Of a DNA stretch of 64,000 nucleotides, positions 3,671 to 47,980 are shown piece after piece. Each line of letters begins with the position of its first letter. Position 1 is the first letter of the stretch. The stretch lies in the sequence record PQ480333.1. One strand, 5' to 3'. A program made the position numbers and the translations under genes. A model generated the notes under the pieces. The model ran no database searches, had not been told where the DNA came from, and saw only the letters and a list, made by a program, of their open reading frames with translations. This DNA is from Escherichia phage NRG-P0074.

Positions 3671-3690
3671 TAAAACATGAGGAGAATATT

Positions 3691-5175: not shown

Positions 5176-5408
5176 GTATAGCAATTTACATTAAATCAGA
5201 ATCATGTGATAGTTATCTGTACACATACGATAAAGATGTGTCAGAAGAAAAAATCAAAGACGATCTTAATATGGACCTTGATATGTTCTGTCCTATTGCA
5301 GATTACAAACTTGCGGTCTCTAATAGTGAAAGTCCATCTAAAGAAACGCGCATCGAAGAATTTATGTCCGAATTAATGGCCAAATCATGGGGCCGAGATG
5401 ATGAGTAA
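5172..5408 (+). CDS. hypothetical acidic protein
   Basis: ATGA overlap with upstream stop; 78 aa. Confidence 0.45.
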   Translation: MSIAIYIKSESCDSYLYTYDKDVSEEKIKDDLNMDLDMFCPIADYKLAVSNSESPSKETRIEEFMSELMAKSWGRDDE

Positions 5409-5856
5409 GAAAAATAAAGTGAAAGAACTATCAGCCGGTATTATTTTCCTTACCGAAGATAAAGAATTATTCATGGGGCGTGTAACTGGTTCTCGTCCTA
5501 AAGGTTCTTTAGCTCATCGGTGGGATATTCCTAAAGGCCGTGTCGAACCTGGCGAATCTCCTATTGAAGCCGCTATTCGTGAATGCGAAGAAGAAACTGG
5601 GTTTACACAATATGACCCTGCCTTCCTGAAAGACCTAGGTGAACATCATTACTCAGACAATAAGAATATTCATCTGTTCTTATATACCATCCCTGTAGAG
5701 CACGAGCAATTCAGAAATAGTGTTTGTAATTCCTATCATACATTCCCAGACGGACGTCAGATTCCTGAATTTGATGCATTCGCTTTAATTAAACCTTCTC
5801 AATGGGAATATGTAATGGGCAAATCATTATATAAGGTGCTCACTACCCTCCTATAA
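5398..5856 (+). CDS. nudE: Nudix hydrolase NudE
   Basis: Nudix box GRVEPGESPIEAAIRECEEETGF; located immediately upstream of e as T4 e.1/nudE. Confidence 0.85.
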   Translation: MMSKKNKVKELSAGIIFLTEDKELFMGRVTGSRPKGSLAHRWDIPKGRVEPGESPIEAAIRECEEETGFTQYDPAFLKDLGEHHYSDNKNIHLFLYTIPVEHEQFRNSVCNSYHTFPDGRQIPEFDAFALIKPSQWEYVMGKSLYKVLTTLL

Positions 5857-5857
5857 G

Positions 5858-5887
5858 TAATAAATACCTCCTATAAACGTGGGAGGT
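5858..5887 (+). promoter_or_regulatory. late-promoter-like boxes plus hairpin sequestering the e RBS
   Basis: AATAAATAC (5860-5868) and TATAAACG (5872-5879) resemble T4 late TATAAATA; ACCTCC 5866-5871 pairs with GGAGGT 5882-5887 (the SD of e). Confidence 0.45.
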
Positions 5888-5890
5888 ATT

Positions 5891-6379
5891 ATGAATATAT
5901 TTGAAATGCTTCGTAATGACGAAGGTCTTAGACTGACTTTATACAAAGACACTGAAGGCTTTTGGACGATTGGCATAGGCCATTTAGTAACAAAGAACCC
6001 GTCTTTAGCCGTAGCTAAAGCTGAACTTGACAGAATGATCGGACGTAAATGCAACGGTACAATTACCCTTGATGAGGCTGAAAAGCTATTTAATGAAGAC
6101 GTTGATAAAGCCGTTCGCGGAATCTTGGGTAATGCTAAACTTAAACCGGTATATGATTCTTTAGATGCAGTTCGTCGGTGTGCATTGGTCAATATGGTCT
6201 TCCAAATGGGTGTAGCAGGAGTCGCCGGTTTTACTAATTCTCTTCGTATGCTTCAACAGAAACGTTGGGATGAAGCGGCAGTAAATCTAGCCCAATCTAA
6301 ATGGTATCGTCAGACACCTAATCGCGCGAAACGCGTAATCTCAACATTTAAAACAGGAACTTGGAAAGCGTATATATGA
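5891..6379 (+). CDS. e: endolysin (T4 lysozyme e)
   Basis: [32 protein letters not shown]... near-identical in pattern to T4 lysozyme; SD GGAGG 5 nt upstream. Confidence 0.97.
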
Positions 6380-12271: not shown

Positions 12272-12853
12272 ATGGCTAGTTTAATTTTTACCTATGCCGC
12301 TATGAACGCTGGTAAGTCTGCTTCATTACTTACTGCCGCACATAACTATAAAGAACGTGGCATGGGTGTATTAGTTCTTAAACCGGCTATTGATACTCGC
12401 GATTCAAAAGGTGAAATAGTCTCTCGTATTGGTATTCGTCAGGACGCCAATATAATTACAAAAGACATGGATATCTTTGAATTCTATAAATGGGCTGCAG
12501 CACAAAAGGATATTCACTGCGTATTTGTTGACGAAGCTCAGTTCTTAACTACTGAAAAGGTGTATCAACTTAGTCGTATTGTTGACGTATACAATGTGCC
12601 GGTAATGGCATATGGACTACGAACAGATTTTAAAGGTAATCTATTTGAAGGTTCTCAAGCATTAATGGCTATTGCCGATAAGCTTGTTGAACTTAAAGGT
12701 GTCTGTCATTGTGGTAAAAAGGCCACAATGGTAGCTAGAGTCACGGAAGACGGACTTCCAATTACAGATGGCAGTCAAATTGAAATTGGTGATACCGATA
12801 GATATGTGTCATTATGCCGGAAGCATTGGAACGATTTGACAGGGTTGTTATAA
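12272..12853 (+). CDS. tk: thymidine kinase
   Basis: P-loop MNAGKSASLL, VDEAQF, Zn-ribbon CHCGKKA...CRKH; typical TK1-type thymidine kinase. Confidence 0.95.
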   Translation: MASLIFTYAAMNAGKSASLLTAAHNYKERGMGVLVLKPAIDTRDSKGEIVSRIGIRQDANIITKDMDIFEFYKWAAAQKDIHCVFVDEAQFLTTEKVYQLSRIVDVYNVPVMAYGLRTDFKGNLFEGSQALMAIADKLVELKGVCHCGKKATMVARVTEDGLPITDGSQIEIGDTDRYVSLCRKHWNDLTGLL

Positions 12854-12880: not shown

Positions 12881-13093
12881 ATGCAGCAATTAAACGAAAG
12901 ACAACTTCGTAATCTTACTGTAACCCAATTGGATGAAATCCGAAGAGAATTAGGACATTCTATTTCTCATTTAAACGAGGATATCCGTCAAACTGGTTCT
13001 AAAGCTGATTATACACGCAAGCGCAAGCTGGAAAAATACCTCACAGATGTTAAGGCCGTCCAAAGGCGAAAAATAAATACTGGCCAAAATTAA
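12881..13093 (+). CDS. hypothetical protein
   Basis: 70 aa ORF with RBS AGAGG. Confidence 0.5.
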
Positions 13094-23733: not shown

Positions 23734-23861
23734 ACCGTGGTATTCGGCTCGATGGGAGACGGTCGAGCCAGACGTCGAAACAGTTTACAACGACGAAGAA
23801 ACGTGTTATGATGGACCTACAGTAAACGATATGATTGATTTGGAAATGGGAAGAGATTATT

Positions 23862-24033: not shown

Positions 24034-24459
24034 ATGAATATTTCTGACACACGTGGTAAGTGGTTCAAGATTGTTAAAGATGACGAAGAACTCCAAGATA
24101 AGTTTCCTGAATTAAAGAAAGATACAATCATCAAGGTAATTGGTACTACGACCGAAGATGGTTATGGCGACCATGGCATTATTGAAGTGATGTTGAACAC
24201 TGGTGAGAAACTTTGCATCTATGACCGTGATACTTCTCTTTGGTGCTTCTGGGAATCACATTCAATAGATGAACTTGAAGAAATTGATTCGGCTGATATT
24301 TCGGATGTGCTAGGTAGTAAACTTGGTGAATTCGAAGGTGAACGAATTTCTTATGCATTAGCTAAATTAGCCGGACAAGAAAATAACGACGGCTATGAAG
24401 GTAACCTGATGCAAGCAGCCGCAGAATACATTGAATATTTAGAAAGACGTTTAAGTTAA
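24034..24459 (+). CDS. hypothetical acidic protein
   Basis: 141 aa. Confidence 0.5.
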   Translation: MNISDTRGKWFKIVKDDEELQDKFPELKKDTIIKVIGTTTEDGYGDHGIIEVMLNTGEKLCIYDRDTSLWCFWESHSIDELEEIDSADISDVLGSKLGEFEGERISYALAKLAGQENNDGYEGNLMQAAAEYIEYLERRLS

Positions 24460-24489
24460 TAAATACCCTTATCTATTTAAGGTAAGGGT
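24458..24489 (+). promoter_or_regulatory. late-promoter-like box plus hairpin upstream of gene 49
   Basis: AATAAATA 24458-24465; ACCCTTA 24465-24471 pairs with TAAGGGT 24483-24489 just upstream of ATG 24495. Confidence 0.45.
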
Positions 24490-24494
24490 TTATC

Positions 24495-24968
24495 ATGTTA
24501 TTATCAGGCGCAAAATATAAAGAAGAAAAACAAAAATTTTATGATGCACAGAATGGTAAGTGTCCTATTTGCCACCGTGAATTAGACCCTGATGTTCAAG
24601 GTAACCATCTTGACCACGACCACGAATTAAACGGGCCAAAAGCCGGTAGAGTTCGTGGATTACTCTGTAATCTGTGCAACGCAGCAGAAGGTCAAATGAA
24701 GCATAAGTTCAACCGTTCCGGTCTTAAAGGACGTGATGTTGACTACCTCGAATGGCTTGAAGCTCTTCTTGCTTATTTGAAACAAGATTATTCTGATAAT
24801 AATATCCATCCTAATTTTGTTCCAGACAAAACTAAAGAGTTCTCAAGACTAGGTAAAGAGGAAATGATGGCTGAGATGCTTCAAAGAGGATTTGAATATA
24901 ATGAATCTGACACCAAAACACAGTTAATAGCTTCATTTAAGAAGCAACTTAGAAAGAGTTTAAAATGA
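24495..24968 (+). CDS. 49: endonuclease VII (Holliday junction resolvase) gp49
   Basis: MLLSGAKYKEEKQKFYDAQNGKCPICHRELDPDVQGNHLDHDHELNG... matches T4 endo VII as I recall it. Confidence 0.95.
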   Translation: MLLSGAKYKEEKQKFYDAQNGKCPICHRELDPDVQGNHLDHDHELNGPKAGRVRGLLCNLCNAAEGQMKHKFNRSGLKGRDVDYLEWLEALLAYLKQDYSDNNIHPNFVPDKTKEFSRLGKEEMMAEMLQRGFEYNESDTKTQLIASFKKQLRKSLK

Positions 24969-30380: not shown

Positions 30381-30938
30381 ATGACTGAACAAAAACCTAA
30401 AAATAACTATGTGAATAATAAAGAGCTTCTCGCCGCTATAATCGAGTGGAAAAAGGAGCTCTTAAATAATAAAGACCCAAACAAAATTATTCGTCAGAAT
30501 GATACCATCGGTTTAGCAATTATGCTTATCGCCGAAGGCCTGTCCAAACGTTTCAACTTTTCAGGATATACCCAGTCTTGGAAGCAGGAGATGATTGCAG
30601 ATGGGATTGAAGCCTCTATTAAGGGACTTCATAATTTCGACGAAACTAAGTACAATAACCCACATGCATACATAACTCGAGCTTGTTTTAATGCTTTTGT
30701 CCAACGTATCAAAAAAGAACGTAAGGAAGTTGCAAAGAAATATAGTTACTTCGTTCATAATGTCTACGACAGTCATGACGATGATATGGTAGCGTTGGTA
30801 GATGAAACGTTTATTCAAGACATCTACGATAAAATGACGCATTATGAAGAATCCGCTTATAAAGCTCCTGGGGCTGAAAAGAAGGAAGTTGTTAGCGATT
30901 CGCCTAGTTTGGATTTTTTATATGAGGATGACAATTGA
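30381..30938 (+). CDS. 55: late transcription sigma factor gp55
   Basis: [35 protein letters not shown]...[32 protein letters not shown] matches T4 gp55 as I recall it. Confidence 0.95.
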
Positions 30939-37359: not shown

Positions 37360-37401
37360 TAAATTTGTTATAAACTTTGAATTGTCTTGAAAGGAAATAA
37401 A

Positions 37402-38088
37402 ATGAAACTGTCTAAAGATACTATCGCTATTCTGAAAAACTTTGCCTCTATTAACTCTGGCATTCTGCTTAGTCAAGGTAAATTTATTATGACTCGTGCA
37501 GTTAATGGCACCACTTATGCGGAAGCAAATATCTCTGATGAAATTGATTTTGACGTAGCACTTTATGATTTGAATAGCTTCTTAAGCATTTTGAGTCTAG
37601 TGTCTGACGATGCTGAAATTTCAATGCACACTGATGGCAATATTAAAATTGCAGACACACGTTCCACAGTTTATTGGCCTGCCGCTGACAAGAGCACCAT
37701 TGTTTTTCCTAATAAGCCAATTCAATTCCCAGTGGCTTCTGTGATTACCGAAATTAAAGCTGAAGACCTTCAACAATTGCTTCGAGTTTCACGTGGTCTT
37801 CAGATTGATACAATTGCTATTACAAATAAAGATGGTAAAATTGTTATCAATGGCTATAATAAAGTTGAAGATTCTGGACTAACTCGTCCTAAGTATTCTT
37901 TGACTCTTACCGATTATGATGGTTCTAACAACTTTAACTTCGTAATCAATATGGCTAATATGAAAATTCAGCCAGGTAACTATAAAGTAATGTTGTGGGG
38001 AGCTGGTGATAAAGTTGCAGCTAAGTTTGAAAGCTCTCAAGTAAGTTATGTTATTGCGATGGAAGCCGATTCTACTCACGACTTCTAA
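37402..38088 (+). CDS. 45: sliding clamp gp45
   Basis: MKLSKDTIAILKNFASINSGILLSQGKFIMTRAVNGTTYAEANISD...ADSTHDF matches T4 gp45 as I recall it (228 aa). Confidence 0.95.
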   Translation: MKLSKDTIAILKNFASINSGILLSQGKFIMTRAVNGTTYAEANISDEIDFDVALYDLNSFLSILSLVSDDAEISMHTDGNIKIADTRSTVYWPAADKSTIVFPNKPIQFPVASVITEIKAEDLQQLLRVSRGLQIDTIAITNKDGKIVINGYNKVEDSGLTRPKYSLTLTDYDGSNNFNFVINMANMKIQPGNYKVMLWGAGDKVAAKFESSQVSYVIAMEADSTHDF

Positions 38089-47702: not shown

Positions 47703-47938
47703 TTTCTAGAAAAACTTTTAACCACCAACTTAATGAAGAGATTTTGACTATGAAACTGAACACTAATGAACAAATTCTTAAAAAGGCCCTGATGGGCCTG
47801 TTTGAAACTAAAGCGGCTAAAGTGATTAAAGAACCTGTTCAATTGGAATACTACGCTGATGCATTTCTTCATAGTGTTCTTGGAAGTATCGATGCTGAAG
47901 CTTTACGTTATATCAACATTGTCAAGAAATTCAAATAA
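47699..47938 (+). CDS. hypothetical protein
   Basis: 79 aa ATGA-coupled ORF upstream of gene 42. Confidence 0.45.
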   Translation: MISRKTFNHQLNEEILTMKLNTNEQILKKALMGLFETKAAKVIKEPVQLEYYADAFLHSVLGSIDAEALRYINIVKKFK

Positions 47939-47980
47939 GCTTTACGAATTGAGTATATAATAAATTGTATTGAGGTAAAC

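Follow-up and report, generated by a model that had tools for sequence, protein, structure and literature searches.

The late-promoter/hairpin gate has been textbook biology of phage T4 since the 1980s. The leaders of the lysozyme gene e and of gene 49 in Escherichia phage NRG-P0074 (PQ480333.1), each with a hairpin over the ribosome binding site (RBS) and a late-promoter-like box, raise the question of whether the same device operates in this phage. We analysed a stretch of 64 kb, referred to as the window, which belongs to the genus Mosigvirus (the RB69 group of T4-like phages). The closest database records to it are AV116, mobillu and APCEc01 with 98-99% identity, and its orientation is the reverse of the standard T4 map.

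According to Uzan and Miller, the T4 genes with a sequestered SD and/or AUG include e, soc, 49 and I-TevI (PMC3014915). The T4 e leader, in their summary of McPheeters et al. 1986, forms an RBS-sequestering hairpin with two late promoters; early transcripts extend into e, translation from the read-through RNA is reduced about 100-fold, and the late-promoter RNAs are made without the 5' strand (PMC3014915). Release by a late promoter is described there for e, and gene 49 is only listed among the genes with a sequestered TIR; for closely related T4-type phages, this 2010 review reports similar predicted structures of the e leader and places a late promoter in the 5' strand of 'each' (PMC3014915). 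For homing endonuclease genes including I-TevI, Edgell et al. described a late promoter in the 5' arm that releases the RBS (PMC2988022).

Leaders of e and gene 49 in the window

The two genes and their upstream neighbours are arranged as follows:

5398-5856, plus strand: nudE, upstream neighbour of e, on the same strand as e
5891-6379, plus strand: gene e, T4-type lysozyme of 162 aa (Pfam Phage_lysozyme), ATG at 5891
24034-24459, plus strand: pin, upstream neighbour of gene 49, on the same strand as gene 49
24495-24968, plus strand: gene 49, endonuclease VII of 157 aa (Pfam Endonuclease_7 and T4 endonuclease VII dimerisation domain), ATG at 24495

Both pairs are co-oriented with short intergenic gaps, 34 nt for nudE-e and 35 nt for pin-49, and nrdD is the next gene after gene 49. 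Sigma-70 promoter matches of the T4-early type are found upstream on the same strand (TTTACA-17-GATAGT at 5185-5213 and TTTACA-17-TATGAT at 23784-23812), and the search for strong terminator matches between these promoters and e or gene 49 returned none. By strand, gaps and promoter matches, e and 49 are thus genes co-oriented downstream of early/middle genes, into which read-through would be expected. The megablast homology to Tequatrovirus genomes starts at 5847-5860 and 24457, i.e., at the boxes.

The leader of e (AATAAATACCTCCTATAAACGTGGGAGGTATTATG) contains these elements:

5859-5866, plus strand: predicted late-promoter box AATAAATA at -13 to -6, with A at -13, counterpart of the upstream e late promoter of T4
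5863-5874, plus strand: left (anti-SD) arm of the hairpin in the MFE fold, with the core AATACCTCC at 5863-5871
5872, plus strand: predicted late transcription start of e, placed at box end + 6 (+/-1 nt) by the -13 to -6 box rule (PMC1524935)
5872-5879, plus strand: loop string TATAAACG, degenerate counterpart of the second e late promoter of T4 (TATAAATA), probably not a promoter
5879-5890, plus strand: right arm of the hairpin in the MFE fold, with the SD GGAGG at 5882-5886, ending 1 nt before the ATG

The initial annotation had paired ACCTCC (5866-5871) with the SD GGAGGT (5882-5887), and this pairing proved to be part of a longer stem. Its core consists of 9 Watson-Crick pairs, AATACCTCC at 5863-5871 with GGAGGTATT at 5882-5890, and the MFE fold has 12 pairs (5863-5874/5879-5890, loop AAAC) at -16.3 kcal/mol, with z = -4.79 and 0/200 shuffles equally stable. 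The upstream box AATAAATA at 5859-5866 had been overlooked; it abuts the left arm, which overlaps its last 4 nt and takes in all of -5 to -1. An RNA from the predicted +1 at 5872 would be without 9/9 of the core left-arm bases, and its predicted folding energy is -1.0 versus -16.3 kcal/mol for the read-through form.

An exact 10-nt direct repeat, CCTCCTATAA, is present on the plus strand at 5847-5856 and, with a spacing of 20 nt, at 5867-5876. Its first copy closes nudE and contains the stop codon, the second forms part of the left arm and the start of the loop, and read-through RNA thereby carries CCTCC as an anti-SD twice. The repeat is not conserved among the closest IMG/VR relatives (L003 and L004 have CATCC) and is therefore probably incidental; the first copy was rejected as a second anti-SD on the same grounds.

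The e leaders of T4 (TATAAATACCTTCTATAAATACTTAGGAGGTATTATG) and the window have in common the position between nudE and e, the right arm SD GGAGGTATT, a left arm AATACCT.C overlapping the upstream box, and a predicted start just past the left arm. T4 has two canonical boxes, of which the upstream one reads TATAAATA and is AATAAATA in the window. The stem of the window has C-G where T4 has U.G (CCTCC vs CCTTC), its loop is 2 nt shorter, and the second canonical box of T4 is TATAAACG in the window, which therefore probably has one e late promoter, not two. The e leader of RB69 is identical to that of the window; over 71 nt, 68 phage records share this leader exactly, and another 83 have it with 95-99% identity.

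In the leader of gene 49, the corresponding elements are:

24458-24465, plus strand: predicted late-promoter box AATAAATA of gene 49, identical to the T4 gene 49 box
24465-24474, plus strand: left arm of the hairpin, ACCCTTATCT, from the fold and covariation
24471, plus strand: predicted late transcription start of gene 49, base A, at box end + 6
24480-24489, plus strand: right arm of the hairpin, AGGTAAGGGT, from the fold and covariation

The pairing of ACCCTTA (24465-24471) with TAAGGGT (24483-24489) and the box beside it, both reported in the initial annotation, are present, and the stem extends to 10 pairs (24465-24474/24480-24489) at -12.9 kcal/mol, with z = -3.31 and 1/200 shuffles equally stable. 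Its right arm comprises all of the SD-like AAGGG (24484-24488) and most of AAGG (24479-24482), A24479 being the last base of the loop. Transcription from the predicted +1 at 24471 would strip 6/10 left-arm bases, including all three consecutive C-G pairs, and would retain 4/10, which counts against full release; the predicted late form nevertheless folds at -1.5 versus -12.9 kcal/mol for the read-through form. At both genes, the box is placed such that a transcript from the predicted +1 would lack most or all of the left arm, and the late RNA would therefore be almost unstructured.

In the read-through fold, the SD tract is sequestered at both genes, with 4/4 positions paired for e and 3/4 for gene 49. 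Among the 95 candidate gene starts of the window with an SD-like motif (mean -5.6, sd 3.6), the leader of e ranks 2nd in stability and that of gene 49 3rd.

The T4 gene 49 leader (AATAAATACCCTTATCTATTTAAGGTAAGGGTTTATTATG) matches the window in 36/37 bases, counted from the box to the base before the ATG; the non-canonical AATAAATA box, the loop and the two arms are all part of the match. The single difference lies at -3 of the ATG, where the window has C and T4 has T. The gene 49 coding sequence is about 84% identical to that of T4, so that the leader is more conserved than the coding sequence. The box shares its first two bases with the end of the pin stop codon (24457-24459), an overlap by which the window differs from T4. 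As judged from their sequences, the leaders of both genes are orthologous to their T4 counterparts.

In RB69, ATK48 and others, pin and 49 are separated by an extra 59-aa ORF (RB69ORF087c), and the base at -13 is T. When the junctions are compared (window 24457-24465, RB69 47761-47950), the window and RB69 are identical from -12 onward, and box, hairpin and gene 49 therefore appear to behave as a unit with variable upstream junctions.

At codon 53, T4 has an internal GTG start for a nested short gp49 (GGAAAGGTG); the window and ATK48 read GTT instead (GGTAGAGTT, 24636-24653, plus strand), and the SD-like AAAGG of the T4 nested start is lost in the window. The nested 12-kDa product is thus probably not made in these Mosigviruses. 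In T4, Barth is said to have mapped the late start of gene 49 in 1988 and to have linked the early RNA to the short 12-kDa product.

Conservation of the hairpins across genera

The comparative set consisted of 45 distinct leaders (16 of e and 29 of gene 49) from IMG/VR loci of many genera. The mean MFE of the e leaders is -12.2 kcal/mol in the read-through form vs -1.4 kcal/mol in the predicted late form, and that of the gene 49 leaders -13.5 vs -1.2 kcal/mol. The share of the left arm upstream of the predicted +1 averages 80% at e and 65% at gene 49; 27/29 distinct gene 49 leaders have A as the predicted +1 base.

The 9-pair gene 49 helix has 90.6% of its cells paired, compared with 71.0% in column shuffles (0/500 reach 90.6%) and 37-51% in slid controls with the partner moved by 1-3 columns. 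Both sides are changed in 57 cells, where 17.3 would be expected, and 5/9 pairs show compensatory changes; one pair reads CG 12, GC 6, AU 5 and UA 2. On the e leaders, RNAalifold found no compensatory pairs. With the SD fixed in the right arm and the register of the left arm shifting, true compensatory covariation is lacking there, and the e leaders were judged by per-sequence folds instead. Across genera, the e stem shifts between CCTCC/GGAGG, CCCC/GGGG and CTCCTATC/GATAGGAG and is kept in all 16 distinct leaders. The structure is thus conserved at both genes, with compensation at gene 49 and without strict compensation at e. The same layout recurs in Aeh1-like Aeromonas phages (L096-L099, of which L098 has 233,234 bp) with a CTAAATA box. 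An Rfam search of the whole window yielded no family at gathering score; sub-threshold matches at the e and 49 sites (mir-1912, Neisseria sRNA 84, plastid intron) were far below the cut-offs and were discarded as noise.

The same hairpins have been read as intrinsic terminators of nudE and pin, which would make the overlap with the RBS incidental or secondary, and this we consider unlikely. They share with rho-independent terminators a stable stem-loop at the end of the upstream ORF; they are labelled 'putative terminator determined with ARNold' in GenBank (PhAPEC2 for e, ATK48 for 49), TransTerm calls the RB69 gene 49 hairpin a terminator with a score of 98, and the tail of the gene 49 stem is moderately U-rich (UUAUCAUGUU). 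Unlike terminators, they have no T-run (3 T in the 8 bases after the stem at e, 4 at 49), so that neither satisfies the stem-plus-T-run definition of the terminator scan, and their 3' arm is the SD of the downstream gene. The stem of most homologues stops at the start codon or within it, which makes the 'tail' coding sequence. A terminator model predicts neither the fixed register of late box and left arm in the 45 leaders nor the switch to CTAAATA in Aeh1-like phages, and in T4 the early transcripts are reported to reach into e (PMC3014915). Termination as the main role was rejected on the missing T-run, the stem at the start codon and the conserved box register; the hairpins may have a partial, additional attenuating role.

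Predicted late-promoter boxes and the factors that would recognize them

Of the 50 T4 late promoter sites listed by Geiduschek and Kassavetis, nearly all match the consensus or depart from it at one position; the match is perfect in 32, and in 9 the base at -13 is A, the commonest T4 variant (PMC2988020). In RB69 and other relatives, conservation at -13 was poor in the data of Nolan et al., with A or T (PMC1524935), and the cryo-EM structure shows gp55 taking up three bases in pockets, those at -12, -9 and -8, and not -13 (PMC7892883). In our leaders, -11 to -6 reads TAAATA in 45/45, and -13 is A in 25, T in 8, G in 8 and C in 4, which makes AATAAATA the commonest form of the box; in leaders L014 and L016, AATAAATA was taken as the box, not the adjacent GCTAAATA. 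An [A/T/G]ATAAATA box is found at this site in 16/16 distinct e leaders. RB69 and ATK48 have TATAAATA before gene 49 where the window has AATAAATA, so that -13 is polymorphic within the genus. From these alignments, the rule for late boxes would be that -13 is free and TAAATA fixed. The boxes do deviate from the canonical TATAAATA, as the initial annotation had stated; the same A stands in 9/50 T4 sites and in T4 gene 49 itself, and the deviation reads as a normal -13 variant, nothing special.

With TATAAATA at -13 to -6 as reference and single deviations tolerated, AATAAATA at 5859-5866 and at 24458-24465 qualifies as a late-promoter box. The loop string TATAAACG at 5872-5879 was correctly located in the initial annotation, and its reading as a late promoter there fails on a double deviation at -7 and -6, which are TA in 45/45 leaders. 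It is very unlikely that TATAAACG works as a second e late promoter as in T4, from which the mRNA would start inside the SD at about 5885. The string occupies the site of the second T4 promoter and retains A at -12, -9 and -8, the bases pocketed by gp55 (PMC7892883), but the 50 T4 sites hardly ever deviate at more than one position (PMC2988020), and TAAATA at -11 to -6 is invariant in the related leaders, unlike in TATAAACG. The canonical second box occurs in the e loop only in T4-group leaders; JS98-like phages have TATACTCA and others unrelated loops (CAATTA etc.), from which the second e promoter appears to be specific to the T4 group. As another candidate e promoter, TATAAGTA at 5852-5859 was rejected: it has G at the pocketed -8, and a start there would retain the left arm.

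In T4 late promoters, an A/T-rich segment is usual just downstream of the box. The bases downstream of the e box are C-rich (CCTCC), which counts against the promoter reading, yet the T4 e promoter has CCTTC in this place and is active. A further point against comes from the promoter HMM that Nolan et al. built for RB69 in 2006, which placed a late promoter, Pl:47792, before gene 49 and none before e (PMC1524935). The predicted e promoter was missed by this model probably because of the A at -13 and the C-rich downstream context.

The phage encodes both a gp55 with the promoter-reading residues and the gp45 clamp:

30381-30938, plus strand: gene 55, late sigma factor (PHROG 'late sigma transcription factor', 3.7e-68)
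37387-38088 (ORF limits), plus strand: gene 45, sliding clamp and late transcription activator (Pfam gp45-slide_C and DNA_PPF)

Window gp55 aligns over its full length with gp55 in PDB 7D7C (chain F, E 3.7e-111), and the residues N13, L54, R57, F86, H95, Y97 and T99 are 7/7 identical to T4. The window also encodes gp44/62 and RpbA; gp33 maps outside it.

In the whole window, on both strands, the ATAAATA core is three-fold depleted (9 observed vs 30.4 +/- 5.5 expected), as would be expected if stray late promoters were selected against. Of the nine copies, six precede a co-oriented gene start by 20-45 nt, namely the starts of e, 49, soc, rI, the ORF at 12881 and the minus-strand ORF at 57918. 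The antiholin gene rI (13106) has AATAAATA at 13072. The ORF at 12881 has TATAAATA at 12849, the counterpart of RB69 Pl:58753 of Nolan et al., and the minus-strand ORF (57918-57730; 62 aa with a hydrophobic stretch) has AATAAATA at 57940-57947 in plus-strand coordinates. That chance hairpins have met chance A/T-rich box look-alikes with no regulatory role is hardly credible: short stems and TATA-like strings are common in an A/T-rich genome, but the z values are -4.8 and -3.3, the leaders rank 2 and 3 of 95, the ATAAATA core is depleted, not common, and the stems are conserved and covary across genera, with the gene 49 leader more conserved than its coding sequence.

Predicted gate, related arrangements and annotation

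With a rough probability of 0.87, the e and 49 hairpins are the Mosigvirus orthologues of the T4 translational gates opened by late promoters. The fixed geometry, the conservation and the covariation fit the gate model, and together with the orthology they support the T4-type reading given to both leaders in the initial annotation. By analogy with the T4 experiments, from which the start sites, the promoter activity, the early read-through and the translational effect are transferred, early/middle RNA polymerase would read through into e and 49 from the co-oriented early genes upstream, and the SD would be masked in the long RNA. The last bases of the AATAAATA box and the five bases before the start would be part of the left arm. 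After the onset of DNA replication, polymerase modified by gp55, gp33 and gp45 would start at about 5872 for e and 24471 for 49; these short late RNAs would be without most or all of the left arm, leaving the ribosome binding site open, and the proteins would be made late. The finding is thus an already known device, correctly recognised in an orthologous genome.

Similar gates have been described for soc, I-TevI/II/III, segB and Aeh1 mobE (PMC2988022), in which a late gene also lies within an early/middle unit and the RBS or AUG is paired in the long RNA and free in the late RNA. They differ from e and 49 in the genes concerned and in their unrelated stems, and soc buries the AUG, not the SD. 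Soc is the third classic T4 case of a late promoter with a hairpin. In the window, soc (58574-58810, Pfam Soc) is preceded by a canonical TATAAATA at 58535-58542, and directly after it on the plus strand comes a 13-bp stem (58543-58555/58569-58581) in which the AUG is buried; T4 soc has an equivalent stem made of different bases (CATGTAATT/AATTACATG).

Of all leader hairpins in the window, the most stable one (60355-60400, plus strand, -22.5 kcal/mol, z -4.9) pairs off both the SD and the AUG of a modB-like gene at 60393, whose product of 193 aa is an ADP-ribosyltransferase (PHROG 'RNA polymerase ADP-ribosylase') with 38% identity to T4 ModB. Its left arm holds the -10 element of an early-type promoter (TTTACA at 60338-60343, a 16-nt spacer and the TG-extended TATGAT at 60360-60365, i.e., TTTACA-16-TGtTATGAT), and RNA from the predicted start at about 60372 would be nearly unstructured (-3.0 kcal/mol). 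T4 modB (minus strand, 1615-1680 of locus L106) has the same arrangement, with -20.8 vs -0.5 kcal/mol, and we found no description of it in the reviews consulted. A broader rule independent of promoter class, by which e, 49, soc and perhaps modB would be translated only from RNA of their own promoter, located in the anti-RBS arm, can be put forward tentatively and is itself rather doubtful.

Several public records and a published table list the e and 49 hairpins as rho-independent terminators (NC_024794, 64664-64700; KT184310, 55265-55292; RB69, 47738-47760). These labels in Mosigvirus records are probably a systematic mis-annotation, or incomplete at best. Another observation concerns the RefSeq entry of RB69 (NC_004928), in which e is annotated from the internal Met6 at 65673, 5 codons short; the true ATG is at 65688, as indicated by homology to T4 MNIFEML and the SD (65673-65688, corresponding to 3674-3689 of locus L104).

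Although the value as a discovery is small, the results are of practical use for annotation, i.e., for the terminator labels and for the missed, predicted e late promoter AATAAATA. The rule of a free -13 and a fixed TAAATA could improve the prediction of late promoters in Straboviridae. CTAAATA, the box found in the Aeh1-like phages, is also the published late consensus for Aeh1 (PMC1524935), and the gene 49 cassette may thus track gp55 specificity across genera. If so, it would be a natural reporter of late-promoter recognition.
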